Of a DNA stretch of 64,000 nt, positions 3,380 through 28,108 are shown piece after piece. Position 1 is the stretch's first letter. Every line of letters starts with the position of its first letter. The DNA comes from Myxococcota bacterium. Lineage in GTDB: Bacteria; Myxococcota_A; UBA9160; SMWR01. The DNA is taken from contig JBFGGA010000001.1 in the NCBI GenBank assembly GCA_041579295.1, positions 2,339-66,338 of the forward strand, written 5' to 3'. Below the pieces are notes generated by a model that saw only the letters and a list, made by a program, of their open reading frames with translations, had not been told where the DNA came from and did no database searches. The position numbers were made by a program, and so were the translations under genes.

Positions 3380-3769
3380 ATGGCGCGATCGCTCGCAGAT
3401 TTCGTGCGCGAAGCCCTCGAGGCGGTCGACGAGATCTCGCCCGAGGAGGCCGCGCAGATCCTCGAGCAGCCGCAGCGCGCGGGCTGGTTCTTCATCGACG
3501 TGCGCGAGCCCGACGAGTTCGCCGCGGGTCACATTCCGGGCGCCCGCAACTTCCCGCGCGGATTCCTCGAGGTGCGCGCCGATCTGGAGCACTACAAACG
3601 CGACCCGTGGCTCGAGGATCGGGGCCGCAAGCTGATCCTGTACTGCGGCGGCGGCCACCGCAGCGCGCTCGCGGGCAAGACGCTGCAGGAGATGGGATTT
3701 CGGCAGATCCGCTCGCTCGCGGGTGGCTGGACGGCCTGGGCCGAACGGGAACTGCCCGTCGAGCGCTGA
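3380..3769 (+). CDS. Rhodanese-domain sulfurtransferase
   Basis: 129 aa. FIDVREPDEF..GHIPGA and the active-site loop YCGGGHRS (CX4R) are typical of single-domain rhodaneses. Confidence 0.85.
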   Translation: MARSLADFVREALEAVDEISPEEAAQILEQPQRAGWFFIDVREPDEFAAGHIPGARNFPRGFLEVRADLEHYKRDPWLEDRGRKLILYCGGGHRSALAGKTLQEMGFRQIRSLAGGWTAWAERELPVER

Positions 3770-3905
3770 GCGCCGCGCCGCGGAGCCGGCCCGCGCGTCG
3801 CGGCTTCAGCCGCCCCGAGCGCGAGCGCACCGTGGGCGCCCCCCGGACGATCGGTCGCCCGGAACGCGCGCGGCGATGCGGGCCCAGCGCGGGCCGGGCG
3901 TTCGA

Positions 3906-4790
3906 TCAAGCGCGCCCGGCCGCGAACTCCAGGACCGGCGCGACCACGAGGTCCGGGCGCTCCATCGGCGCGAGATGACCCGCGTCGAGATCGCAGACCC
4001 GCGCGTCGGCCATGCGCGACGCGAGCTGCTCGTAGATCGAGCGGGGAAACAGGCCGCGTCGCGCCCACCCGATCAGCGTCGGCGTCCGAACCCGCTCCGC
4101 CACCGACCAGAGATCGGTCGAGCCGGTGGCTTCGAAGACCGCGGCCTCGATCTCGCTCCGGCACTTGAGCTCGACCTGACCGTCGGGGCGGTCCGCCAAC
4201 CCCTCGGCGACGTAGAGATCGAGCGCCGCGGGATCCCAACCCGCGAAGAGCGCCTTCTCCGACCACGCGCGCCGGGCGACCTCTCGACTCGGCCAGACCT
4301 GGCGGCGGCTCCGAGCGCCCTGGGCGAGCAGGTCGCCGCGCGGGTTGGGCGCGGAAGCCGCCCGCCCGCGCGGCGGGGCGAGCAGGACCGGGTCGACGAG
4401 CACGTTGCGCGCGAAGAGATCCGGACGCTCCGCGCAGGCCATCAAAATCGAGCTGCCGCCGAAGGAATGCCCGAGCCCGAGCGCCACGCGACCGTCGGGC
4501 TGCTCGGCGGCGAGCGCCTCGGCGACGGCCAGCACGTCGCGCCCGAACAGCTCCCAGCGGTAGTGGTCCGCGCCATCGGGCTTCGAGGAATCGCCGTGCC
4601 CGCGCGCGTCCATCGCGGTCACGTGGAAGTGCGCGCTCAGACGCTCCGCGACGGGGCCCCACACGCCCGCGCAGAAACCCGTCGCGTGATGGAGCAACGC
4701 CAGCGGCCCCTCGCCCCCCCAGTCGAGCAACGCAATCTCGATCGCGCAGTCCGGGAGTGCGAGCCTGCGTCGGCGGACCTGGCTGAGCAT
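3906..4790 (-). CDS. Alpha/beta-fold hydrolase
   Basis: LLHHATGF (oxyanion region), nucleophile elbow GLGHSFGG and a C-terminal AGHLAPMERPD histidine region. Start set at the internal ATG (MLSQVRRRR...), since upstream of it the ORF is Arg/Ser-rich. Confidence 0.8.
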   Translation of the reverse strand: MLSQVRRRRLALPDCAIEIALLDWGGEGPLALLHHATGFCAGVWGPVAERLSAHFHVTAMDARGHGDSSKPDGADHYRWELFGRDVLAVAEALAAEQPDGRVALGLGHSFGGSSILMACAERPDLFARNVLVDPVLLAPPRGRAASAPNPRGDLLAQGARSRRQVWPSREVARRAWSEKALFAGWDPAALDLYVAEGLADRPDGQVELKCRSEIEAAVFEATGSTDLWSVAERVRTPTLIGWARRGLFPRSIYEQLASRMADARVCDLDAGHLAPMERPDLVVAPVLEFAAGRA

Positions 4791-14084: not shown

Positions 14085-15185
14085 TCAGCCTTCCGGGGCG
14101 GCCTGCGGGCTGACGTCGCCGACGCCCTGCGAAGCGGGGCCGGCAGGCCCCTCTGGATCGCCGTCCGGAGCGGCCTCGAAGCCGCCTTCCAGCGCACCCT
14201 CTTCGCTGCCCTCCAGCGCGCTCTCCAGGCCGCCCTCCGCGGCGCGCTTGGCGTCGAGCGCGGCCTCCAGGTTGCGCAGGATCTTCAGCGTGTCGTCGCC
14301 CGGGGCCTGGAGGGCCAACTCGTAATGGGCGATCGCGTCGTCCCAGAGCCCGTTCATGTAGTAGACGTAGGCGAGGTTGTTCTCGGCCGCCTGCTCGCTA
14401 CCCGCGGAGCGAAATGCGCTCATCGCCTCCGCGTAGCGGCCCTGTCGACCCAGCGCGATGCCGAGGTTGTTGCGGTAGGCGGGATCTCTCGCCTCCAGGG
14501 AGATCGCCTGGCGAAAAGCCTTCTCCGCGCGCGCCGCATCACCCGCGAGCAGATTGGCGATGCCGTAGTTGTTGACGATCGCGGAGTTCTTCGGCGCCAG
14601 CTCAGCTGCGCGGCCGGCGTGTTCCTGTGCGTCCTGGTAGAGGCGAAGCGCGCCGAGGGCCAGCGCGTAGGCGCCGTGCGCGTCCGCGGATTCCGGATCC
14701 AGCTCGAGCGCCCGCTCGAGATGGCGAGACGCGCCCTCGGGGTCGCCTTGGGCGAGCCGAGCCAGGCCGAGCCCGACGTAGGCCATCGTCGAGGTGGGAT
14801 CGGTCTCGACGATCTTCAGGAAGACCTCTTCCGCCCGCTCGGGCTCGCGAGCGAGCTGCAGGTAGGCGATCCCCGCGTGGGAGCGCGAGTCCGCGGGGTC
14901 CAGCCGGAAGGCCTCGAAGTAGAGCCTCGTCGCCTTTTCGACATCGCCCGCGCGATGCGAGCGCTGTGCGGCGGCGAGGGTCTCGTCGAAGGACGGCGCC
15001 GTCTCCTTTTCGACCTCCGCCACCTCCGCGGCGGCCCGCTCGGCCATGTACTGGCGGTACGCCTCGAGCGAGGTCTCGTTTTCGCTCTGGCCCCAGAGCG
15101 ACGCGCAGCCGGCCAGGCAGAGCCCGATCGCGGTGGCCAGCAGAGAGCGCGCAAGGCGGGCGAGCCGATGAGGTGCAGGTGTCAT
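14085..15185 (-). CDS. tadD: TPR-repeat lipoprotein (TadD-like position and architecture)
   Basis: MTPAPHRLARLARSLLATAIGLCLAGCAS has a lipobox. Multiple TPR units follow (AYVGLGLARLAQGDPEGA..., NNLGIALGRQGRYAEA...). It is the last gene of the Tad locus. Confidence 0.7.
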   Translation of the reverse strand: MTPAPHRLARLARSLLATAIGLCLAGCASLWGQSENETSLEAYRQYMAERAAAEVAEVEKETAPSFDETLAAAQRSHRAGDVEKATRLYFEAFRLDPADSRSHAGIAYLQLAREPERAEEVFLKIVETDPTSTMAYVGLGLARLAQGDPEGASRHLERALELDPESADAHGAYALALGALRLYQDAQEHAGRAAELAPKNSAIVNNYGIANLLAGDAARAEKAFRQAISLEARDPAYRNNLGIALGRQGRYAEAMSAFRSAGSEQAAENNLAYVYYMNGLWDDAIAHYELALQAPGDDTLKILRNLEAALDAKRAAEGGLESALEGSEEGALEGGFEAAPDGDPEGPAGPASQGVGDVSPQAAPEG

Positions 15186-15228
15186 TGCGATCTCATCGGC
15201 AGCCGGTTTTTTGGACTTTACGTCGGCG

Positions 15229-16605
15229 CTATCGGCCGTGGCGCTCGAAGAGATCGGCCGCGAGCGTGAACCCGGAGAGCTTGAGCTTCTCGGCGAACTT
15301 CGGCCGCACGCCGGTCGGCACGATCTCGCCGAGCACGTTCCCCTCCGAGTCGATTCCCCTGCGCTCGAAGGTGAAGATCTCCTGCATCGTGACGATCTCG
15401 CCCTCCATGCCGGTGATCTCCTGCAGGCTCACGAGCTTGCGTCGGCCGTCGCTCAAGCGGGAGAGCTGGACCACCACGTCGATCGCCGACGCGATCTGGC
15501 TGCGCACGGACCGCTGCGGCATGTCGAGTCCCGCCATCGCGACCATCGTCTCCACGCGGCTCAGAGCGTCGCGTGGCGAGTTCGCGTGGACGGTCGTCAG
15601 CGAGCCGTCGTGACCGGTGTTCATCGCCTGCAGCATGTCGAGCGATTCCGCGCCGCGAACCTCGCCGACCACGATGCGGTCTGGTCGCATCCGGAGGCTG
15701 TTGATCACGAGGTCGCGCTGCGCGATGCGCCCGTTGCCCTCGATGTTCGCGGGGCGCGTCTCCAGACGAACGACATGCTCCTGCTTCAGCTGGAGCTCCG
15801 CCGAGTCCTCGATCGTGACGATGCGCTCGCATTCGGGGATGAAGCTCGAGACGACGTTCAGCAGGGTCGTCTTGCCGGCACCCGTTCCACCAGAGATGAG
15901 CACGTTCAAGCGGCACGCGACGACCGCGCGCAGGAGCTCGACGATCTCGAGTGTGAGGGCCCCGTTTTCGACGAGGTCATCGACCGTCAATGGATCGGCG
16001 CCGAAGCGTCGAATCGAAACCGAAGGGCCGTCGAGGGCGAGCGGTGGAATGATCACGTTGACGCGAGATCCGTCGGCAAGTCTCGCATCGACGAGCGGCG
16101 ACGATTCGTCGATCCGCCGCCCCACGGCGGAGACTATCTTGTCGATGATGCGCATCAGATGCGCGTCGTCCCTGAAGCGGGCGACCGTCTTCTCCAGTTT
16201 TCCGCGTCGCTCGATGTAGATGTCGTTGCAGCCATTGACCAGGATGTCCGAGATCGTCGGATCCTGGAGCAGCGGTTCGAGCGGCCCGAGGCCGAACACT
16301 TCGTGCTGGATCTCCTTCACGAAGCGCTCCCGTTCCTCCAGCGTCAGGAGGAATTTCTCCTCTTCGAGAATCTGAACCGTTGCCGTCGCGATGTCCGAGC
16401 AGACCTGCTCTTCGCTGACGGACGAGATCCGGCCGAAGTCGATCACGTCGAACAGCCGATTGTGGACCCGCGACTTCAGATCCTGGTACAGCGCATCGCG
16501 AGCGGGGGGCGCCGAGCTGCGCTTTCCGTTCTTCGGCTGCGCGGCGGGCGCCGTGGACTTGGCGGGTGCGGGGCTGGAGCCCTTGAGTCGATCAAGCAGA
16601 GCCAC
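15229..16605 (-). CDS. tadA: Tad pilus secretion ATPase TadA/CpaF
   Basis: Walker [15 protein letters not shown], a [11 protein letters not shown] Asp box, Walker B/His box [14 protein letters not shown]...[17 protein letters not shown] 16605 sits 7 nt after AGGAGG; the ORF upstream of it overlaps tadZ. Confidence 0.95.
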
Positions 16606-17797
16606 GTGAGGACCTCCTGGAGAACACGCCGCGGAAGCGACGGGCGATGCCGCGAGCCGGCTCGGCCTGCGGAGCATCGACGCCGCACCACGCGTAGACA
16701 TCGAGCGCGAGCTTTCGATAGGCCTCGCAGATTGCGCTGCCACGGGATATCTGCCCGATCGGCCTCCCCTGGTTGACGCTTTCCGCCGTCGTCGCATAGT
16801 CGTTGGGAATGAGCGCATCGGGCTCGCTTCCCAGGACACGCTTGAAGTCGCTGACGGTGATCGCGCCGCCCTTCGAATGGCGATTGCCGACCGTGCGGAC
16901 CCGAGAGCCGTCGAGTGCGAGCCCTTCGAGCAGCTTCTTGTGCTGGCGCGCGTGGTTGAGCGTCGGGACGTCGAAGAGGGTCACCAACAGTATCTGGTCG
17001 GCGATGCTCAATGCCTGGACGCTCGCTTCGTTCCAGCTGCGGGAGACGTCCACCAACACCCAGTCGAAACCGGATCTCAGGATCGGAAGCACGCGCTCGA
17101 CATGGACGCCGTGAATGCCCTCGGCCTCCTCCATCTGCGTGGGCCCCGCGAGGATCTGTACCCCGCTGTCGTGCCCCTTGAGAATCGTTCGGATGTAGGT
17201 CGCGTCGAGCTCCTGCTCGGCGCGGGCGAGATCGGCCAACGTGTAGGTGGGGTCCACGTCGTAGTGAAGCGCGACGTCTCCGAGTGGATAGTTGAGGTCG
17301 ACGATCACGGTGCGGCCGCCGAGTTCCTGAAGCGAGGCGGCGAGCTGGCAGGCCAGGACGGTCGCACCGACACCCCCCTTGGTTCCCATCACCGCCACGA
17401 CTCGGCCCGCCCCCGTAGCGGAAATCGGGGTGGCGCTGCGTACGAGCTCGACGATGACCGAGTGCAGCTCCTCCTCCGCGGGCGCCGTCGGAAAGAAGTG
17501 CTTCACACCCAGGTGCATGGCGCGCAGAATCAGCGAGCTCTCGGTGTGAGGTCCCGATACCACCGTTAGAGGGAGTCCGCTGTGCAACGACTCCAGCAGA
17601 TCCAGCACTACGTGCGGCGCGTGGCCGAGATCAGCGAAGAGGCCATCGGGCTTCTCGGACTTGAGCACGCCGAGAAGCTGATCGGGGTCGCCGACCACCG
17701 TGGCGACGCGCGCCTCCCCGCTGGCCCCGATCTGCCGCTCGATCTCGGCGGCGAATTCGGGCTCTTCCGAGAAGATGACGAACGAAAACATGTTCAA
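16592..17797 (-). CDS. tadZ: TadZ/CpaE: receiver-like N-domain plus MinD/ParA-type ATPase
   Basis: N-terminal pseudo-receiver ([15 protein letters not shown]...), then [24 protein letters not shown] (deviant Walker A) and a ParA-like core. Confidence 0.85.
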
Positions 17798-17875
17798 ACC
17801 CCTGTCCGCTGCCCATCGAAGACGCGGGCCGATGCACGCAAATCTCCGATCCTCGTTCCAGACCCCGGCGGCCGA

Positions 17876-18169
17876 TCAGTTGGCGTCGATCTGGATGATC
17901 GACGGCATCTGCACGGGTGCCGGCTGGCTCTGCTTCTCGAAGTAGCGATCCATCACCACGGCGGCGGTGTCCGGATCGATCGTGGGAGCATCGGCGTTCT
18001 CGTAGACCGCATTCGGATTCTCGGTCTGCGTGACGGTATTCTCGAAAACCGCCTCACCCATGTGCTGGTCCACCCAGGAGGGACCCATCGGAGTCATCGA
18101 TTCACAGCCAATCAGCATGGCGATACCGGCGATGGCGGCAGCCAGGCTTCCCAGTCGCAGCGTTCTCAT
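17876..18169 (-). CDS. Small lipoprotein coupled to the secretin gene (RcpB/CpaD/pilotin position)
   Basis: ATG 18169 overlaps the secretin stop (ATGA). MRTLRLGSLAAAIAGIAMLIGCES has a lipobox. 97 aa with no recognisable family. Confidence 0.6.
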   Translation of the reverse strand: MRTLRLGSLAAAIAGIAMLIGCESMTPMGPSWVDQHMGEAVFENTVTQTENPNAVYENADAPTIDPDTAAVVMDRYFEKQSQPAPVQMPSIIQIDAN

Positions 18170-19650
18170 TGAAGACCTCCCTCGAACGTAGTGGTGACGC
18201 GGTGACCGGTGTCGCCGATCAACCCTTCGGTGTCGAACTGGCCGAGCAATTCGCCCTCCGCGGGCTCGGGCGGCATGCCCTCGAGAGCCCCCCACAGGAA
18301 GAACTCGAGCGCGCTCGGCTCGACGAAGTGATCGGTGGGAAGCGGATGCGGGCCCGGACCCAGCGGCTTGACGAGCGTCGGCGTAACGATGATGACGAGC
18401 TCGGTCTCATCCTTCAGGAACTGAGTGCTGCGGAACAGCGCACCGAGAATCGGAAGGTCGCCCAGCAGCGGATACTTGCCCGCAATCTCGCGGACCTCCT
18501 CGCTCAAGAGGCCGGCGATCATGAAGCTCTGTCCATCCGCGAGCTCGATGCTCGTCGACGCCCGCCGGCTCGCGAAGCCGGGAACCAGCGTTCCGGACAC
18601 CTCGGTTCCAAACGTGAAGTCCGCGCGGCTGACCTCGGGATTGACCACGAGGTGGATTCGATCCGGGCCGAGGACCGTGGGCGTGAACGAGAGACCCACG
18701 CCGAAATCCTTGTACTCGACGGTGATCGAGCCGAACGCGCCACCCTGTGCGACGGGAATCGGCACCTCGCCTCCCACCAGGAAGCTCGCCGACTCGCCGC
18801 TTCTCGCCACGAGCGTGGGCTCGGCGAGGATCTTGCTGAGCCCCTGCTCGTCGAGCAGATCCAGGAAGACCTCGAGCGCCTCGAGCGCGCCGAATCCGGT
18901 GAATGAGCCGAAGATATTGGCCATGCTGTTCGCCAAGCTACCACCGCCCGGAGAGACCAGGGTCCCGACGAAGCTACCGATCCCGACCTGGCCGCTGCCG
19001 GCCGTGATCAGCGCCGCGAAGTTCGTCCCGAACTCCCGATTCAGGGAGCGCGACATTTCCGCAACGATGACCTTGAGCATGACCTGGTGGTTGCCACCGA
19101 CCTCGATCAGATTGACGATTCGCGCAGCGTCGCCCTTCTCTCCGACCATTCCGTGGGCAAGCTTCAGGGCTTGATCGAGCAGCACGCTGCTGGAGACGCT
19201 TCCCCTGAGGATGACCGCGTTTCCGGCTCCCTCCACTGAAATCGTGTCGCTGTTCAGGTAGCGCCGCAGCGACCGCTCGATGTGCGCGTAGGCGGTGCCG
19301 ACGTCGACCTGGATGACGGCCTGCGGCCTGCCCCTGTCGTTCCAGAGCAGCACGTTCGTCACGCCAATGCCCTTGGCGACGAGCTGCAGGTCCTTGGGCC
19401 CGAGCGCCACCACGTCGACGAAGTCGGGATTGCCGATCGAAATCCGTTTCACGGTGTAGGCGGTGTTGAGGCTGATCGACTTGCCTATTTCGATCTGCAG
19501 ATCGTGCACTCGTTCCTGCTCGCTGAGCGGAACCGCAAGGCGGATCGAACCGTGATCGGGACTCAGCGTCGCGGCAGAGCTCGTAGAGACGATTCCGGAC
19601 ATCGAGAGCGTCCAGAGCGCAATGCCTGACCAAATCAGGATCCGCATCAT
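18166..19650 (-). CDS. rcpA: Tad pilus secretin RcpA/CpaC
   Basis: Signal peptide MMRILIWSGIALWTLSMSGIVSTSSAA at the internal ATG 19650. BON-like and secretin-N regions, then the C-terminal secretin core (...PLLGDLPILGALFRS...ELVIIVTPTLV). Confidence 0.9.
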   Translation of the reverse strand: MMRILIWSGIALWTLSMSGIVSTSSAATLSPDHGSIRLAVPLSEQERVHDLQIEIGKSISLNTAYTVKRISIGNPDFVDVVALGPKDLQLVAKGIGVTNVLLWNDRGRPQAVIQVDVGTAYAHIERSLRRYLNSDTISVEGAGNAVILRGSVSSSVLLDQALKLAHGMVGEKGDAARIVNLIEVGGNHQVMLKVIVAEMSRSLNREFGTNFAALITAGSGQVGIGSFVGTLVSPGGGSLANSMANIFGSFTGFGALEALEVFLDLLDEQGLSKILAEPTLVARSGESASFLVGGEVPIPVAQGGAFGSITVEYKDFGVGLSFTPTVLGPDRIHLVVNPEVSRADFTFGTEVSGTLVPGFASRRASTSIELADGQSFMIAGLLSEEVREIAGKYPLLGDLPILGALFRSTQFLKDETELVIIVTPTLVKPLGPGPHPLPTDHFVEPSALEFFLWGALEGMPPEPAEGELLGQFDTEGLIGDTGHRVTTTFEGGLQ

Positions 19651-19813
19651 CCATCCGACGCTCTCGGAGTGCCTACTCGGTGTCGTGTAGAGTATCAACA
19701 TGCCGATCTCCTGATTTGCAGCGTCCATCATGTAATGCCATTGCCTCGTTGCTTCGCTCTTTACCGAGATCACGATGAACCCGGAGCAGCAGTAACGCGG
19801 CGATCGTCCTAAG

Positions 19814-19829
19814 AGCAAGGGGCGTGCCA
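19814..19829 (-). promoter_or_regulatory. Sigma-54 (-24/-12) promoter upstream of the secretin gene
   Basis: Minus strand reads ccTGGCACGCCCCTTGCTct, a full match to TGGCACG-N4-TTGCW with GG and GC at the canonical spacing. It lies 164 nt upstream of ATG 19650. Confidence 0.65.
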
Positions 19830-19972
19830 GGCGGGATTTGCCGATGGCTCGTCGAGGAGAAAAGAGCGGAGTCTCGGCTTGCTTCGCGGGCAACTGCTCG
19901 TAGATGAAGCGCCGAATAACCGCATTCTCGATCGGATCTGATGTAGGCCACTACCCAAGACTCCCCTCCGGG

Positions 19973-20007
19973 ACACAGGCCTGAATTTTCTTGCGGCCCT
20001 CGGGGAA
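19973..20007 (-). promoter_or_regulatory. 35-bp conserved upstream element (candidate enhancer/UAS), copy 2
   Basis: Minus strand TTCCCCGAGGGCCGCAAGAAAATTCAGGCCTGTGT is 31/35 identical to 25646-25680. It lies exactly 143 nt upstream of the sigma-54 promoter, as in the other copy. Confidence 0.55.
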
Positions 20008-20155
20008 TCGACCGCATCGCGAAACCGCAACAACCCATCGATCGGCAGTGACCATAGAGATCGCGCGGCGCCCGACCGGAAGGGGCACACGGTTGCACGG
20101 ACGACGTCCGCTCGCGGGGATGGCGCGATGATCGGCCTCGTGACGCCAGGGCAGC

Positions 20156-21070
20156 CTATTGGTTGCTGAGCGCGCTCAGCATCATGTAGGCGCCGGGTGC
20201 GATGAAGATCACGAGCAGCGCGGTGAAGATCATCGTGCTCGGAAGGATCAGCTTGAGGGTGGCCTTCTGGGCGCGCTCCTCGGCGCGCTGCATGCGGACG
20301 ACGCGCATCGAATCGGCGTGCACGCGGAGGGCATTCGCGAGGCTCGTCCCGAAACGCTCGGTCTGAACCAGAAGCGCCACGAGCGAGCTGATGTCCGAAA
20401 CTCCGGTTCGATCGGCCAGCGCCCGCAAGGCCTCGGTGGTGCTCTTGCCGGCGCGCGTCTCCTCGACCACCAGCGAGAACTCCTTCGCGATGATCGGGCA
20501 CTTGGATGCGAATTCGTCCGAGACCTGCGCGAGGCTCTGATTGATCCCGAAGCCGGCTTCGACGCAGACGACCATCAGATCCAGCGCGTCGGGGAGCGCT
20601 CGAACGAGCTCGCGCTGACGCGATTTGATTCGGCTGTCCAGGGCGATGCTGGGAAAGACGTAGAAGATCGCAGACAACACGATCAGCATCCCTAACTGAA
20701 CCACAGAGGGCAGAGCCCAGAAGCCCGGCAGCAACGCGACGATCGCCGGACCGCCGATCGCGAGCGTGGGCCGGACCCCATAGAAGATCATCGGAGCCGA
20801 GGGTCGCCGGTAGCCCGCGCGAACCAGGCGAGACCGGAGGCGCGAGGCGTCCGCACCCTCTCGCCCGCGTCCGATCCGGGCGAGGAGCCCCGACCAACCC
20901 TTCTCCTGGCCGTGCATGAGGGACCGGCCCGCAAACTCGGTGGGTCGCTGCTTCGGGCCGAGGTGCGCGAGCCGGCGGCCGATGGCGCGGGGCCCGAGCA
21001 TCGCGCGGATCGCGAGCACCAGCATGATGACAGAACCGAAGACGAGCGCAGGAATCGCAAAATCCACCAT
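20156..21070 (-). CDS. tadC: Tad pilus inner-membrane platform protein TadC (T2SS-F family)
   Basis: 304 aa: N-terminal TM, a cytoplasmic helical T2SSF domain (LPDALDLMVVCVEAGFGINQSL), and C-terminal TM helices. Confidence 0.85.
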   Translation of the reverse strand: MVDFAIPALVFGSVIMLVLAIRAMLGPRAIGRRLAHLGPKQRPTEFAGRSLMHGQEKGWSGLLARIGRGREGADASRLRSRLVRAGYRRPSAPMIFYGVRPTLAIGGPAIVALLPGFWALPSVVQLGMLIVLSAIFYVFPSIALDSRIKSRQRELVRALPDALDLMVVCVEAGFGINQSLAQVSDEFASKCPIIAKEFSLVVEETRAGKSTTEALRALADRTGVSDISSLVALLVQTERFGTSLANALRVHADSMRVVRMQRAEERAQKATLKLILPSTMIFTALLVIFIAPGAYMMLSALSNQ

Positions 21071-21079
21071 CTCGACCTC

Positions 21080-22015
21080 TCAGGCTTCCACGTCTGCAAT
21101 ACGCAGCGCCATGAAGTAAGCCAGCCCGTCGAGCGCAAAGGCGCTCGCCAGCGTGAAGTGCCCCCAACGGTGCTCGAAGAGCGGGCCGATGTAATCGGGT
21201 GCGACCATCCAGACGAGACAGATGATGGCCGGCAGCCACAGCGCGAGGAAGGTTGCGGCTCCACGCCCTTGCGCGGTGAGCGCGCGTACGCGCCCCTTGA
21301 ACTGCGAGCGCTCGCGGAGGAGCGTACTGAGCCGATCGAGGAGCTCCGCGAGGTTGCCGCCGGTCTGGCGTTGGATCAGCACCGCGGTGGTCAGATACGG
21401 GAGGTTCTCGTTGTCGATCCGACGCATCAGATTGCCGAGTGCATCGCGCAGCTCCAGGCCGAGCCGCACCTCTTCCGCGACGACGCCGAACTCCGTCGCG
21501 ATCGGATCGGCGAGCTCCTCGCCCACCATCTGGAAACCCGCAACCAACGAGTGTCCGCTGCGCATCGAACGCGTGACGAGCTCCAGCGCGCTCGCGAGCT
21601 GCGCGTCGAAGGCGCGCATGCGCTTTCTCGCGCGCGAGCGGGCCCAGAGCAGTGGGAGAAGGCCCGTGACGACCGCGGGCGCGGCTCGAAACGAATCCTG
21701 CGTCAGCACGAAGACGCCCAGGAAGCCGATCGTCGCAAACGCCGCCGAGACGGCGAGGAAATGGCGGACACCCATCAGGCTGCCTGCCCGGTAGAGCAGC
21801 AACTCGAGCTCGAGCAGCCTGCGGATGTGCGAGCTTCCGCGGCGCCGCAGAATCGACTCGCCATTGCTGATTTCGACGCTCCCGACGCGCGACGCCAGGT
21901 TGCTGAGCCGGCTCTTCACGCGGGCCGGATCCCTGCGCCGGCCGAAGAGCTCGAAGATCCCTTCGAGCGCGAGAAGCGCCCCTACGAAGACGAATACGAA
22001 GACCATGAATTGCAT
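21080..22015 (-). CDS. tadB: Tad pilus inner-membrane platform protein TadB (T2SS-F family)
   Basis: ATG 22015 verified (MQFMVFVFVFVGALLALEG). T2SSF domain (LASALELVTRSMRSGHSLVAGF) and two C-terminal TM helices. Confidence 0.85.
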   Translation of the reverse strand: MQFMVFVFVFVGALLALEGIFELFGRRRDPARVKSRLSNLASRVGSVEISNGESILRRRGSSHIRRLLELELLLYRAGSLMGVRHFLAVSAAFATIGFLGVFVLTQDSFRAAPAVVTGLLPLLWARSRARKRMRAFDAQLASALELVTRSMRSGHSLVAGFQMVGEELADPIATEFGVVAEEVRLGLELRDALGNLMRRIDNENLPYLTTAVLIQRQTGGNLAELLDRLSTLLRERSQFKGRVRALTAQGRGAATFLALWLPAIICLVWMVAPDYIGPLFEHRWGHFTLASAFALDGLAYFMALRIADVEA

Positions 22016-22024
22016 TTGCGATCC

Positions 22025-23173
22025 CTAGTTCACGATGACGGGGTAATCGGCCGAGATGCTGCCGGCGATCGACCCGCCCGGACCAAATCCGGTGGTGTCA
22101 CAGCGCGGATCCGTCGAGCAGATGAAGTTTCCCTTGATGAGCTTGTCCGGCGTGACGATGATCTCGCGGATGTCCATGCACAGGAAGCCCACGATGTACT
22201 GTCGATCGCCGCTTGCGCACTGATCGCCGGGATTCTGGCACTCGATGATCGGGAGCGTGACGACCCAAGAGTCCGCGACGCCGTCGCCGTTCGTGTCGCT
22301 TCCCTCGGCATCGAAGCGGTCCTTGATGTCCTGGACGACCGGGGTCTTGGTTCCGTTGTCGATGTAGATCGGCTCGTCACCGATCGTGCCCGAGTTGCCG
22401 TCCTGGACGATCTGCGTCATGTCCGGCACGCTCACCGAGGGGCTGTCGCTGTCGAAGGCCGTCCAGCAGGCGTTCTGCTCAGGCGTCGAGAAGAACTCGA
22501 GGCAGCTCACCGTCTCGCCCGTGGAAAGCGGACACGGATTCGGAATGCTGTTGTTGACGAACTGGCAGTAGTTCTCCGAGCACGTGGCGCCCGCCCGGTT
22601 TCCCGACACCGCGCAGCAATCGATCGCGATCGGTAGATCAGCAGTGCCGGGGCCGCCGCTTCCCGCGAAGCCCCATTCGGCAACCGCGTCGGTATTCACG
22701 TTGATCGAGCCCACGCCCAGGGCGCGTCCCAGAATCGTGTCGATCGGCCCGTTCGCGGTGGCGTCGCGGCGCGCCACGACGCGAACCGCGCGCACGACGT
22801 TGGGGTCGGTGTTGCCCGGCAGCGCCGTGAAGGCCTGCGCGGCCATGTCCCAGCTCCCGACCTCGACGTCCGCCGCAGCGATCGTGAGATTCATTCCGAG
22901 CGCCTCGTGCTCGGCCCCGTACGTCGCCGCAGCGGTGCGGGCGCTCCCCTCGTCCACCGTCTGGAAGTCGGGCGAGAAGAGATTTCCGACGCCCGCGAGC
23001 GCGGCCGAGTCGGCAGCCGCCTGCAGCTGGCTCTTCGCCTGCCACGCGCGTCCGGTCTCGGTCGACCACGCCGCGAAGCCCACCAGAGCTGCGAGCGCGA
23101 TCGTCACGAAGACCAGGACCGAACCCTTTTCACGCCCGTTCTCGATTGTGCTCGGTCTTCGTCGGTCCTTCAT
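22025..23173 (-). CDS. tadG: TadG-like pseudopilin/pilus-associated protein with Cys-rich C-terminal domain
   Basis: MKDRRRPSTIENGREKGSVLVFVTIALAALVGFAAWSTETGRAWQAKSQLQAAADSAALAG matches the Tad_N/TadG N-terminal pattern. The C-terminal 200 aa contain about 12 Cys. Confidence 0.75.
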   Translation of the reverse strand: MKDRRRPSTIENGREKGSVLVFVTIALAALVGFAAWSTETGRAWQAKSQLQAAADSAALAGVGNLFSPDFQTVDEGSARTAAATYGAEHEALGMNLTIAAADVEVGSWDMAAQAFTALPGNTDPNVVRAVRVVARRDATANGPIDTILGRALGVGSINVNTDAVAEWGFAGSGGPGTADLPIAIDCCAVSGNRAGATCSENYCQFVNNSIPNPCPLSTGETVSCLEFFSTPEQNACWTAFDSDSPSVSVPDMTQIVQDGNSGTIGDEPIYIDNGTKTPVVQDIKDRFDAEGSDTNGDGVADSWVVTLPIIECQNPGDQCASGDRQYIVGFLCMDIREIIVTPDKLIKGNFICSTDPRCDTTGFGPGGSIAGSISADYPVIVN

Positions 23174-23248
23174 CGCGATTCCCAAATGTGATTCGATCCG
23201 CTTGCGGTTCCCATGCGACCGGAGCCGGCGTGAACGCCGGCTCTCCGA

Positions 23249-24070
23249 TCAGAACTTCTTGACCTCCACCTCGGTCCCGCGAATGATCTTCACCCGGTTG
23301 CTGCGGGGAGCCGACGCCACGACCTGCTTCGCGGTCGGCTTCGTGGAGGCGATTCGACCTTCGAGCACGTCCGCGACTCCGATGCTCCGGGTCGCGACTT
23401 CGGCGTCGTCGCCCGGCGAGCGCAGCGCGAGCTGGAGCCGCCCTTCGTGAGCTGCGTAGATCAGGTGCTCGGCCTGCTGGGGGGTCACCTCGAGCGTCAC
23501 GACGTTGACGAGCTCCGGCTCGCCGTTCTTGACCTCTTCGAGCTTTTGGTCGACTGCGAGCACGCGAACGTCCTGCAGAATGACCTTGGAGAACGGAATC
23601 GCGCGCTCCAGATCCACGCGGCGAATGGTTGCCATCACGTCCACGCGAGAGCCGGGTACCACGAAGCCCGCCACGCCGATCACGTTGTCGACCTTGACCG
23701 ACACTGCCCGGAAGTCGTCGCTGATCACGGCGCCGAGCCCGCCGGCCGCGCCGGTCTGGTACAGCGCTGCCTCGAGGACGGCCTCGCCCTGCGCGAGCGG
23801 CCGTCGCGTGATGCGATTCTCTACCTTCTCGATCGAGCGCAGCGCGCCCATCGGAACGTGCTCGCTCGGCCAATCCACCAGCTTGAGCTGCGCGCGCGTG
23901 AGGCTCGACGCGACGGGCACGTCCGACCGCACCACCACCACGGGCGTCGTCTTCACCGCGCTAACGCTGGCCTCGGCCGGCACGGCACCGAACTTCGTCG
24001 TGATCCAGGCCGCACCGAGGCCCATGATCACTGCCAAGCCTAGAAAAATCAGTCCACGTCGATTCTGCAT
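23249..24070 (-). CDS. cpaB: Flp pilus assembly protein CpaB/RcpC
   Basis: MQNRRGLIFLGLAVIMGLGAAWITTKF is an N-terminal anchor. A SAF-like region and an RcpC beta-domain follow (VVTLEVTPQQAEHLIYAAHEGRLQLALR). Confidence 0.85.
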   Translation of the reverse strand: MQNRRGLIFLGLAVIMGLGAAWITTKFGAVPAEASVSAVKTTPVVVVRSDVPVASSLTRAQLKLVDWPSEHVPMGALRSIEKVENRITRRPLAQGEAVLEAALYQTGAAGGLGAVISDDFRAVSVKVDNVIGVAGFVVPGSRVDVMATIRRVDLERAIPFSKVILQDVRVLAVDQKLEEVKNGEPELVNVVTLEVTPQQAEHLIYAAHEGRLQLALRSPGDDAEVATRSIGVADVLEGRIASTKPTAKQVVASAPRSNRVKIIRGTEVEVKKF

Positions 24071-24099
24071 GGGTTTCTCCTTTCGAATCCTTTGGCGAA

Positions 24100-24534
24100 T
24101 TACTCGTTACGCATCACGGAGCGAGCGGTCAGGTTCGTGCTCGGTGCCAGACCGGCGAGGGCAGAGAGCGCCACGTAGTCGTAGGGAACGCTCGCGGTCA
24201 CGACGAGCTGCGTGCCCGTGCCGAGGCAGGCCCCGGTTACGGTCGTGCTGATGTTCGCGGGGTCGATGCCTGAGCTGTCCGCGAAGTCGGAAACCGTGGT
24301 CTCGACCAGCGTGGTCACCGTCGCGGCGTCACACGGCGCGCGGAAGACCACGCCCGTGCGCGCGCCCTCGCGAACGGCGTTGGTCAGGCTGTTCCAGCGC
24401 GTGAACGAAACGCCGAACTCGGCGATCGCGAACACGAGCAGGAGCAGCAGCGGGAGCACGATCGTCGCCTCGACGATGGAAGTGCCGGCTCGAGTTCGGT
24501 GCGCGCGCGCTGCCGGATCGATTCGCTTCACCAC
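24100..24534 (-). CDS. tadE: TadE-like pseudopilin
   Basis: GTSIVEATIVLPLLLLLVFAIAEFG is the TadE N-terminal motif. GTG starts at 24534/24531 overlap the tadV stop (GTGA). The track ORF begins at TTG 24552. Confidence 0.8.
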   Translation of the reverse strand: MVKRIDPAARAHRTRAGTSIVEATIVLPLLLLLVFAIAEFGVSFTRWNSLTNAVREGARTGVVFRAPCDAATVTTLVETTVSDFADSSGIDPANISTTVTGACLGTGTQLVVTASVPYDYVALSALAGLAPSTNLTARSVMRNE

Positions 24535-25172
24535 GGGGAACCCCCATACCAATGCGCGGCGAGGCCGATCGCGATGGCCACCGCGAACGGGATGCCGCCC
24601 GACGCGACCGACCCTTCAGCGGGGCGCTCGTAGCCGACGCGACGGAGGGTCAGCAAGCGCCAGAGCATCCGGCACCAGCGGCGGGCGAAGGGGGCCAGCT
24701 GTCCGCGCAGCGCGAGCAGCGTCAAGCCGAACGCGCCACCCGCGATCACCGCCCAGACGGCGGTGCCGAGCGTCGCTACGGGGCCGAGCCAGGCGCCGAG
24801 CGCCATCAAAGCCTTCACGTCGCCGGCGCCCATGCCCCCGAGCGCGTAGGGCCCCACGAGCAGCGCAAAACCCAACGCCGCACCCGCTGCCGCTTCGAGC
24901 GGCCCGCTCGTCGCGCCGGCCCAGGGCGAGGCGAGCAGCGCGGCCAACAGCGCGGGCAGCGTGAGCCAATTGGGAATCCGGTGGAAGCGCAGATCGCTCG
25001 CCACCGCAAAAACGAGAAAGGCCGCTGCCCATCCGAAGACGGGCAGCGGCGTCGAACCCATGAGCCCGGCGCCGACCAGCAACATCCCAAGACCGAGTGC
25101 GACGCTCCATGCAAGGAATGCAGGGCGTACCTCGGGGAGGGCGCGACTGATCGAAATTGTGTCGGTGCTCAT
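24528..25172 (-). CDS. tadV: A24-family prepilin peptidase TadV/CpaA
   Basis: Polytopic, 214 aa. The first catalytic Asp is in VASDLRFHRIPN and the second in GGMGAGDVKALMALGAWLG. Confidence 0.85.
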   Translation of the reverse strand: MSTDTISISRALPEVRPAFLAWSVALGLGMLLVGAGLMGSTPLPVFGWAAAFLVFAVASDLRFHRIPNWLTLPALLAALLASPWAGATSGPLEAAAGAALGFALLVGPYALGGMGAGDVKALMALGAWLGPVATLGTAVWAVIAGGAFGLTLLALRGQLAPFARRWCRMLWRLLTLRRVGYERPAEGSVASGGIPFAVAIAIGLAAHWYGGSPW

Positions 25173-25199
25173 GATTGCTCCAATATCCCGAGGAGACCT

Positions 25200-25373
25200 T
25201 TACGGGATCTGGGCAGTCTGGGCGCTGAGCGACGTGATGCCGCGCAGCACGTCTCCGCCGATCGTGACGAAGAGCACCGCAGAGCCGGCCACGATGATGC
25301 CGCCGACGATGGCCCACTCGACGGTCTCGAGACCGCTTTCGTCCAGCATGAACTTCTTGATCTGGTTCAGCAT
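25200..25373 (-). CDS. flp: Flp-family type IVc pilin (57 aa; below the ORF-track cut-off)
   Basis: Hand translation of the minus strand gives MLNQIKKFMLDESGLETVEWAIVGGIIVAGSAVLFVTIGGDVLRGITSLSAQTAQIP*. It carries the Flp motif G/xxxxE-aromatic (G-LETVEW) and a hydrophobic core. AGGAG sits 8 nt upstream of the ATG, and the gene lies directly upstream of tadV. Confidence 0.85.
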   Translation of the reverse strand: MLNQIKKFMLDESGLETVEWAIVGGIIVAGSAVLFVTIGGDVLRGITSLSAQTAQIP

Positions 25374-25431: not shown

Positions 25432-25486
25432 GATGGGCTTCGGGCGGAGCCCTCGGCCCGGCCCCACTCGGGGCGCTGGTCCCAGG

Positions 25487-25502
25487 AGCAAAGCCTGTGC
25501 CA
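25487..25502 (-). promoter_or_regulatory. Sigma-54 (-24/-12) promoter upstream of flp
   Basis: Minus strand reads cgctTGGCACAGGCTTTGCTcc, with GG and GC at the canonical spacing of TGGCACG-N4-TTGCW. It lies 114 nt upstream of the flp ATG. Confidence 0.65.
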
Positions 25503-25645
25503 AGCGCGGGGAACGAGAGCGGCGGCCTGCGAAAACACACACGGGTTCGCGCAGATGCGCGAGCTCGCACACATCGGTGATCGCCGGCGACTCACGTCGA
25601 GGTGCCGCCCGGCGGTAGAGAAGCGGCCAACGAGTCAGGATCAGT

Positions 25646-25680
25646 ACACAGGCCTGCAATTTCTTGCGGCCCCAGGGGAA
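25646..25680 (-). promoter_or_regulatory. 35-bp conserved upstream element (candidate enhancer/UAS), copy 1
   Basis: Minus strand TTCCCCTGGGGCCGCAAGAAATTGCAGGCCTGTGT lies 143 nt upstream of the flp sigma-54 promoter. It is 31/35 identical to 19973-20007. Confidence 0.55.
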
Positions 25681-26755: not shown

Positions 26756-28108
26756 ATGCGCATCGCCTTGCGTTCTACGTTGATCGTCGCGATCGCCAGT
26801 GCCGCGGGCGCAGCCCACGCGCTGCAAAGCCCGGACTGGGACGTACTCGAAGAAACCGCCCAGCATTCCCTCGAATACGCCAGAACGGACGAGCCCGCGC
26901 CCTGGGTGAACCCCGACACGGGCGTCGAAGGCACCTTCACGCCGGTCGCGACCCACGAGGGGCCGGAGGGTCAGGTCTGCCGCGAATACGCGGTCGACGC
27001 GATCATCGACGGCCGCGAGGAGGTCGTCTACGGGACCGCGTGCCGCCTACCGGACGGCACCTGGGTCGAGGCGAACGCCGAGTACACCGAAAGCGAACCG
27101 CCGAAAGAAGACTGCGAGGTGCACTCGGGAACGGACTGGCGCTGGATCATCCCGAACTTCACCATTGCGGGCGGATACTGTTCGCGGAGTTTCTGCGTAG
27201 GCGGTAGCTTCGGCTCGTTCTATCCGAGCTGGTACTACCCCTGGCGGATTCGCTTCGCCTATTGGGACTACGGCTACTGGGGCCACCACTACCGTTACTA
27301 TCCGTACTACACCTACTACCCCCGCCACCACAGCTACCACTCGCACACCCACTACCGCCACCATCGCCGCGCCTACCACGACCGGCACTTCAGCCACCAT
27401 CGACACAAGCACCGGAGCCACCATTACAGTGAGCACAAGGATCGGCATCGAGGTGGCCACTCGAAGCGGGTAGACAAGCGCAGCCGCAGGTCCGATCACG
27501 ACCGCCCCACCAGAGAGCGATCGATCCATCGCCCCTCTCAAGGCGAGCGCTACGCGAGCCATCGAACCGATCGACGCCAAGAGCGCGGAGAACGCCGCGC
27601 GAGCGAGCGATCGGACGACCGTCGAGTGGACGCGCTGCGCTACGCGAGCCACCGATCCGATCGACGCCACGAGCGCGGAGAACGCCGCGCAAGCGAGAGA
27701 TCGAGCGACCGCCGCTCGAAAGGCGAGCGCTACGCGAGCCACCGATCCGATCGGCGCCACGAGCGCGGAGAACGCCGCGCGAGCGAGCGAGCGAGCGACC
27801 GCCGCTCGAAAGGCGAGCGCTACGCGAGCCACCGATCCGATCGACGCCACGAGCGCGGAGAACGCCGCGCGAGCGAGCGATCGAGCGACCGCCGCTCGAA
27901 AGGCGAGCGCTACGCGAGCCACCGATCCGATCGACGCCACGAGCGCGGAGAACGCCGCGCGAGCGAGCGATCGCGCGACCGCCGCTCGCATGGCGAGCGC
28001 TACGCGAGCCACCGCTCGGGCGGCGACCGGTCGCACGGTCGACACGCTTCGACGGGCCGCTCCGGACGCGGGGGCAAAGGGGGCAAGCGCTCCGCGTCCC
28101 GGAACTGA
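26756..28108 (+). CDS. Secreted protein: surface-antigen-like N-domain, Tyr/His/Trp-rich core, Arg/Ser/Glu/Asp-rich 30-aa tandem-repeat tail
   Basis: GAAGGAGG sits 7 nt before the ATG. Signal peptide MRIALRSTLIVAIASAAGAAHA. PWVNPDTGVEGTFTP...GQVCREYAVDAII...GTACRLPDGTWV resembles the 17-kDa surface-antigen type-2 domain (from memory). The frame stays open through YYPYYTYYPRHHSYHSHTHYRHH and 5+ copies of GERYASHRSDRRHERGERRASERSSDRRSK. Confidence 0.7.
   Translation: MRIALRSTLIVAIASAAGAAHALQSPDWDVLEETAQHSLEYARTDEPAPWVNPDTGVEGTFTPVATHEGPEGQVCREYAVDAIIDGREEVVYGTACRLPDGTWVEANAEYTESEPPKEDCEVHSGTDWRWIIPNFTIAGGYCSRSFCVGGSFGSFYPSWYYPWRIRFAYWDYGYWGHHYRYYPYYTYYPRHHSYHSHTHYRHHRRAYHDRHFSHHRHKHRSHHYSEHKDRHRGGHSKRVDKRSRRSDHDRPTRERSIHRPSQGERYASHRTDRRQERGERRASERSDDRRVDALRYASHRSDRRHERGERRASERSSDRRSKGERYASHRSDRRHERGERRASERASDRRSKGERYASHRSDRRHERGERRASERSSDRRSKGERYASHRSDRRHERGERRASERSRDRRSHGERYASHRSGGDRSHGRHASTGRSGRGGKGGKRSASRN
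27541..28020 (+). repeat. 90-bp in-frame tandem repeat array (about 5.3 copies)
   Basis: CGCTACGCGAGCC recurs at 27548, 27638, 27728, 27818, 27908 and 27998. The central copies differ by only a few bases. Confidence 0.9.

Follow-up and report, generated by a model that had tools for sequence, protein, structure and literature searches.

A composite sigma-54-type enhancer-promoter cassette, present in two paralogous copies, probably drives the Tad locus of a Myxococcota bacterium

In Pseudomonas aeruginosa, Myxococcus xanthus and Geobacter sulfurreducens, type IVa pilin genes are driven by PilS/PilR and sigma-54. The PilR sites are tandem repeats near the promoter, and the pilin gene is the only classical target. 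The looped sigma-54 promoters of nifH, glnHp2 and Pu of the TOL plasmid have an architectural protein between the enhancer and the promoter. Tad-like pili include the contact-killing Kil apparatus of Myxococcus. PprB is reportedly a dedicated regulator of several transcription units in a Tad locus and is said not to be a sigma-54 activator. For Myxococcota, the literature searched contained no account of Tad or Kil systems under sigma-54 control.

The locus described here resembles the PilS/PilR systems in that a pilin gene is preceded by a -24/-12 promoter that would be activated from upstream sites. It differs from them in the pilus, which is of the Tad (type IVc) and not the type IVa kind, and in having a single distal dyad 143 nt away. 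As in nifH, glnHp2 and Pu, the putative enhancer lies about 100-200 bp upstream, conserved sites intervene, and sensitivity to spacing and phase is to be expected. Unlike in those promoters, there is no IHF-consensus sequence in the flp and secretin classes of the cassette, and the spacing varies by only ±1 nt over 37 copies in three gene contexts, a tighter limit than helical phasing alone would impose. PprB-driven Tad promoters, unlike the present cassette, are not known to be of the -24/-12 type. In Desulfovibrio vulgaris, both the Flp-type pilin genes and a tadE/tadG operon are reported as targets of the sigma-54 response regulator DVU2114 (PMC3333781). The likeness to that system is that one sigma-54 activator is predicted for two Tad/Flp units through a shared upstream motif. 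There the DVU2114 gene adjoins its pilin targets and the second target is distant, whereas here no linked activator gene was found and both targets lie within one rearranged locus. Neither the present motif nor a fixed spacing of 142-144 nt was found in that account (PMC3333781).

The window, a 64-kb stretch of DNA, contains a Tad/Flp (type IVc) locus (Table 1). The A24 prepilin peptidase, the TadE/TadG pseudopilins, CpaB/RcpC, the secretin, TadZ, TadA, the TadB/TadC platform proteins and TadD all gave Pfam or NCBIfam matches above the family cut-offs, and the 57-aa flp pilin did not. The pilin was recognised by its position, size and conservation, and a PDB sequence search with it returned no match. 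The organism is known from MAGs only, and a protein identical to the 511-aa secretin (P0001) is called on NCBI MAG contigs. The gene content of both proposed units was as the initial annotation had given it, according to Pfam, NCBIfam and the gene calls. The gap between the tadC and secretin genes is 454 nt long. Elsewhere in the window, five to seven tandem 90-nt (30-codon) repeats occupy 27500-28107 (+) within the ORF 26756-28108, the N-terminus of which matches a 17-kDa surface-antigen domain.

Table 1. Positions of the Tad genes and of the parts of the two cassettes in the window.
Feature	Position	Strand	Unit, sequence or basis
Proposed unit 1	20156..25373	(-)	Pfam; synteny in relatives
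flp pilin	25373-25200	(-)	unit 1
Prepilin peptidase TadV (A24)	25172-24528	(-)	unit 1
TadE	24552-24100	(-)	unit 1
CpaB/RcpC	24070-23249	(-)	unit 1
TadG	23185-22025	(-)	unit 1
TadB	22015-21080	(-)	unit 1
TadC	21070-20156	(-)	unit 1
Proposed unit 2	14085..19701	(-)	Pfam, NCBIfam; gene calls on identical MAG contig
Secretin RcpA/CpaC (N-terminal pilus domain)	19701-18166	(-)	unit 2
97-aa lipoprotein	18169-17876	(-)	unit 2
TadZ-like ParA ATPase	17791-16592	(-)	unit 2
TadA ATPase	16605-15229	(-)	unit 2
TPR lipoprotein TadD	15185-14085	(-)	unit 2
Distal element (block A), flp copy	25646..25680	(-)	TTCCCCTGGGGCCGCAAGAAATTGCAGGCCTGTGT; core CCGCAA-N4-TTGCAG
Sigma-54 type -24/-12 promoter of flp	25487..25502	(-)	TGGCACAGGCTTTGCT
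Distal element (block A), secretin copy	19973..20007	(-)	TTCCCCGAGGGCCGCAAGAAAATTCAGGCCTGTGT
Blocks B and C, secretin copy	19940..19966	(-)	GGGGAGTCTTGGGTAGnnnnCTACAnC
Block D, secretin copy	19895..19907	(-)	class consensus TCAtCGATGnGCA; window copy TCATCTACGAGCA degenerate
Block E, G..TTTT run	19860..19867	(-)	about 31-38 nt upstream of TGGCAC
Sigma-54 type -24/-12 promoter, secretin copy	19814..19829	(-)	TGGCACGCCCCTTGCT

A 35-bp distal element and a sigma-54 type -24/-12 box were found upstream of both the flp and the secretin gene. The two elements are identical at 31 of 35 positions, and the spacers (25645..25503 and 19972..19830) are both 143 nt long, as the initial annotation had counted. 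Its coordinates and sequences for the secretin-side promoter (19829..19814) and element (20007..19973) were exact, and its remark that this gap is less GC-rich than its surroundings agreed with our values (GC 0.55-0.60 over 19600-20100 vs 0.62-0.68 in the flanks). In both promoters the GG and GC doublets are exactly 10 nt apart, as sigma-54 -24/-12 boxes require. Perfect matches to TGGCACNNNNNTTGCW (TGGCAC-N5-TTGCW) occur exactly twice in the 64-kb window, both intergenic and on the coding strand, compared with 0.00 expected from 100 shuffles of 64 kb. The 26-nt core of the element, with up to 3 mismatches allowed, was found at just these two sites of the window (0.00 expected). Moreover, a PWM built from 33 related elements gave these sites 57.7 and 52.9 bits, with no score above 8 bits in the rest of the window. 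The reverse strand of the element was considered as a divergent sigma-54 promoter and rejected, as its doublets are arranged as GG-N13-GC instead of the required GG-N10-GC.

Transcription is predicted to start near 25476 for flp and near 19803 for the secretin gene. The secretin-copy element is centred at about -184 relative to this predicted start, and block D lies at about -105 to -92. The secretin gene starts at the ATG at 19701, which gene callers also choose and which, with its AGGAG Shine-Dalgarno sequence, is conserved in relatives, and the -12 box of the internal promoter ends 113 nt before this codon; the box had earlier been placed 164 nt before an ATG at 19650. The segment 19701-19650 (-) encodes a conserved 17-residue extension (MLILYTTPSRHSESVGW) ahead of the hydrophobic signal sequence. 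On the flp side, three conserved hairpins were observed in the 5' leader (25478-25374, -), notably at 25432-25407. The long hairpin, CTGCAGCCGTGAC/GTCACGGTTGCAG, includes a palindrome, TGACGTCA, that resembles a CRE. In ten relatives the pairing of this hairpin is kept by compensatory changes, which affect five pairs. The hairpin may bind a protein, or it may act in the RNA as a regulatory or stabilising element.

Many secretin homologues with 55-90% identity were found in metagenomes and in MAGs labelled Myxococcota or Deltaproteobacteria. In each of four GTDB MAGs (L001, L002, L003 and L006; secretins 72-81% identical) both modules, that is, element plus sigma-54 promoter, were present, with a spacing of 143 nt in seven of the eight and 144 nt in the other. 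Metagenomic contigs were then scanned with the element only, blind to the promoter. This gave 46 matches, 27 of which had a sigma-54 box 142-144 nt downstream (26 perfect, one with a single mismatch). Two were cut by the contig end, and 17 had neither the flanking CCCC..GGG nor a promoter and look like chance matches. Altogether, related Myxococcota MAGs and metagenomes yielded 37 modules. The spacing was 143 nt in nine and 144 nt in two copies of the flp class; 142, 143 and 144 nt in two, 13 and four copies of the secretin class; and 142 nt in all seven copies of a third class. None of the 37 fell outside 142-144 nt. The sigma-54 box was conserved in 37/37, always before flp, the secretin gene or the gene of an 113-aa protein, and TGGCA(C/T)-N5-TTGCT was present in 19/19 secretin-class modules. 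Element, spacing and box were likewise kept in all 19 tadC-secretin intergenic regions recovered, which was the comparison that the initial annotation had proposed. All 19 secretin-class copies with a recovered upstream flank lie between tadC and the secretin gene, and all 11 flp-class copies between msrB and flp.

The mean pairwise identity was 83-85% for the element (83% in the 13 secretin-class modules with 143-nt spacing), 86-94% for the promoter and 61% for the spacer, while the 80 nt upstream of the element showed 33%, which is the random level. Conservation starts abruptly at the 5' edge of the element, and the cassette tolerates single-base indels only, at two or three positions. The sharp edge and the randomised DNA upstream of it indicate that the cassette is under purifying selection throughout. 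The feature is real and conserved, and very probably functional. The distance from promoter to start codon is looser than that from enhancer to promoter, at 129-136 nt for flp and 122-132 nt for the secretin gene. Two more distant relatives, L004 and L131, have a sigma-54-like box before flp, but their AT-centred dyads are different ones and lie about 125 nt (L004) and about 77 nt (L131) away; as both putative element and distance differ, the 143-nt rule is specific to this clade. The promoter regions of L004, L130 and L131 could not be confidently aligned and were left out of the module count.

The third class was found at seven loci (L085, L094, L112, L116, L117, L124 and L126; e.g., L112:2854-3414 +). 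Here the element is followed after 142 nt by TGGCACAGrGCTTGCT, with the same internal blocks as in the flp and secretin classes. The target is a monocistronic gene whose 113-118-aa product has a signal peptide (MRILICTVLTAVTLLAAPAAMA|ERDDGP...) and no Pfam match. Its neighbours are unrelated, e.g., an ABC transporter or hydrolases, and its leader is wholly different and short, with about 52 nt from TGG to the start codon. These modules often came from the same metagenomes as the tad modules, and the gene was not found in the 64-kb window. One cassette architecture in three gene contexts suggests that the blocks are sites of trans-acting factors and that the enhancer-promoter distance is itself constrained.

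The two spacers of the window are 34% identical in register and 20-32% in shifted registers, and the initial annotation had taken them to be unrelated. Their relatedness is invisible when just two sequences are compared. Spacer profiles of the flp type (11 flp and seven third-class copies) and of the secretin class gave a mean dot product of 0.346 in register, against 0.262 ± 0.019 over 80 shifted registers (maximum 0.296; z = 4.4). The matching columns form short blocks, namely GGAGTC at 8-9 nt past the element, CT.C, TCAnCGAT..GC about 79 nt before TGGCAC, and G..TTT about 31-38 nt before TGGCAC. GGAGTC and CT.C, which make up blocks B and C, are common to the secretin, flp and third classes, and block E is one of the few columns kept in all three. 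The first ~20 nt after the -12 box (CGCCCCG) are also shared between classes (z = 2.9), and the flank upstream of the element gave no in-register signal (z = -1.9). The view of the spacer as unrelated sequence thus does not hold, the same blocks being present in the third class as well. Nor does the spacer drift freely, since its within-class identity is 61% compared with 33% in the upstream flank. The equal spacing had been read as selection on geometry rather than duplication. The in-register blocks favour duplication of the whole cassette together with several constrained internal sites, which is a better account of the equal length than pure geometry. By sequence comparison, the two regions of the window are paralogous copies of one composite enhancer-promoter cassette.

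The presence of the internal copy coincides with a rearrangement of the locus that puts tadG-tadB-tadC before the secretin gene. The order flp-tadV-tadE-cpaB-tadG-tadB-tadC followed by secretin-lipoprotein-tadZ-tadA-tadD was seen in the window, in L001-3, L006 and L121, and in all metagenomic contigs that were long enough. Relatives with secretins of 46-60% identity (L004, L005, L007 and L131) have, as far as their contigs reach, the canonical order flp-tadV-tadE-cpaB-secretin-lipoprotein-tadG-tadZ-tadA-tadB-tadC-tadD, in which the internal gap is absent. Given the in-register homology of the two copies, the internal cassette is most likely a duplicate of the flp regulatory region made during the move of tadG-tadB-tadC. 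In L121, a foreign gene (3551-4342 +) for a 263-aa membrane protein, which by its sequence may be of the isoprenylcysteine-carboxyl-methyltransferase type, separates the cassette from tadC but not from the secretin gene, which the cassette still adjoins. In L130 (2801-14185; secretin 59% identical), the Tad locus consists of two divergent units that share a 720-bp intergenic region. These are flp-tadV-tadE-cpaB-tadG-tadZ-tadB-tadC and, on the opposite strand, secretin-lipoprotein-tadA-tadD, with tadZ in the flp unit. An element-like GCGGCCCGAAAAATTCGCAG was observed in this 720-bp region, with no clear sigma-54 box.

We therefore consider it probable that one composite sigma-54 enhancer-promoter cassette, present as two paralogous copies, drives the Tad locus, and the module probably defines a two-operon sigma-54 regulon. 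Each cassette would span about -205 to about +25. One would fire flp-tadV-tadE-cpaB-tadG-tadB-tadC and the other secretin-lipoprotein-tadZ-tadA-tadD. The distal AT-centred dyad-like element would bind a bacterial enhancer-binding protein (bEBP) encoded by an unlinked gene. The internal blocks GGAGTC, CT.C, TCAnCGAT..GC and GTTT would fix the loop as additional sites for an activator or for DNA-bending proteins, and the cassette would be completed by a consensus -24/-12 promoter, which lies 142-144 nt away from the element. We infer sigma-54 use, activator binding, looping and separate transcription from these features of the DNA. With a paralogous cassette on each half of the Tad machine, both halves would answer to the same activator. 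No rpoN gene was found in the 64-kb window, as judged by the RpoN box, or linked to tad in the related loci. A six-frame search for the GAFTGA/ESELFG activator motif found none in the window and none linked to tad among 52 related loci (L001-L006 and L081-L126), so the activator must be encoded elsewhere. An ESELFG match in L101 was dismissed as a linked activator because it sits in a chance-match locus.

The separation into two units has to be weighed against transcription of the whole locus as one operon from the flp promoter, with the internal cassette being just a booster or a condition-specific start. No intrinsic terminator was detected between tadC and the internal promoter in 19400-20400, and neither a sigma-70 promoter nor a terminator was found after tadC; a weak hairpin-plus-T-run upstream of flp overlaps block E and is within chance expectation. 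The secretin unit may therefore also be read through from the flp promoter. The canonical-order relatives without the internal gap, which presumably use one upstream promoter, also fit a single operon. On the other hand, conservation of the internal cassette (19 sequences) equals that of the flp cassette, an unrelated gene is tolerated between tadC and the cassette in L121, and the secretin unit of L130 lies on the strand opposite to the flp unit. We regard a single operon as quite improbable. The same comparative evidence, i.e., the conserved module, L121 and L130, speaks for the two co-regulated sigma-54 units of the initial annotation. Its statement that the internal promoter splits the locus is unproven, there being no terminator after tadC, and the operon boundary at that point is placed by the conserved promoter and comparative gene order only.

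Under the two-cassette interpretation, the distal element is the putative binding site of the bEBP activator. In the secretin class it reads tCCCCnnGGGCCGCAAkAAAnTkCnnnCCTGTGk and would be an imperfect, AT-centred dyad. The dyad is a perfect inverted repeat, CCGCAA-N4-TTGCGG, in the flp copies of L002 and L006, a near-perfect palindrome, CGCAAT-N2-ATTGCG, in the third class, and degenerate in the secretin copies. There is one clear dyad per module, whereas many activators typically have at least two sites. Block D is a candidate second activator site or architectural-protein site, and the assignment of individual blocks to an activator or to an architectural protein is a guess. Between element and promoter, no position in the flp and secretin classes agreed consistently with the E. 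coli IHF consensus WATCAANNNNTTR at 7/9. Block D agrees with this consensus at 3-5 of 9 positions in these two classes and at 7-8 of 9 in the third. The T-rich stretch of block E, which the initial annotation had suggested as an IHF-like site, is indeed conserved as a block (GTTT), but it is not IHF-like in sequence, reaching 7/9 in just 2 of the 19 secretin copies.

Alternatively, the 35-bp element might bind a repressor, a global regulator or an IHF/HU-like bending protein, with the activator at the internal blocks, e.g., TCAnCGATGnGCA at about -100. The degenerate dyad of the secretin copies is in line with this, as are the AT-rich centre, which could attract an IHF/HU-like protein, and the cores of the flp and third classes (CAATAAATTGCGT), which match the reverse IHF consensus YAANNNNTTGATW at 7/9. 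Furthermore, about -100 is a more usual enhancer distance, and block D is palindromic in the secretin class (CATCGATG) and conserved in all three classes. Against this, the DNA upstream of the element is not conserved, so that DNA bent at this point would bring no partner site closer. No part of the cassette other than the promoter is better conserved than the element, and the perfect inverted-repeat half-sites in several copies are what a dimeric HTH activator would be expected to need. We regard this assignment as unlikely. A further reading is that the cassette is a rigid, enhanceosome-like unit, in which one activator and at least one architectural protein occupy four or five fixed sites; we put this forward as a tentative and somewhat doubtful model. 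If it is true, the distal site must sit 142-144 nt from the -24 box with no helical-turn variants, and the rigid unit has served as a portable promoter cassette of which at least three unrelated genes received a copy, namely flp, the secretin gene and the unlinked gene of a small exported protein.

It is extremely improbable that the resemblance between the copies is a decaying relic of duplication or chance, or that the region encodes a small protein or a structured RNA. A 141-codon ORF does span the gap in the window, and RNAalifold finds some pairing of the element with the promoter regions. A relic is at odds with the adjacent neutral DNA, which is fully randomised at the same divergence (33% identity). 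No frame is open across all members, and the ±1-nt indels break any frame. The RNAalifold structure across the spacer pairs only the invariant GCAA with TTGC blocks, across the predicted transcription start, and was not accepted as a structured RNA. Rfam gave no match in the cassette region, and an sX9 match inside tadC was sub-threshold and was judged to be chance.

Sigma-54 control of pilin genes is itself classical, and the cassette leaves the understanding of the sigma-54 mechanism unchanged. It is a regulon signature specific to this clade, and its multi-block architecture is unusually rigid. The locus provides an example of an internal promoter gained by duplication of a whole regulatory region during a reshuffle of gene order, and the modules provide 37 natural variants in which the enhancer-promoter distance is held to ±1 nt. 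If the rigid-unit model is true, they are a natural test case for how strict sigma-54 enhancer geometry can be, and the cassette gives a handle on the regulator of Tad (Kil-like) pili in Myxococcota. With the cis-signature of element, ~143 nt and -24/-12 box, one can look for the activator and for the remaining members of the regulon, which already takes in one unlinked exported protein.
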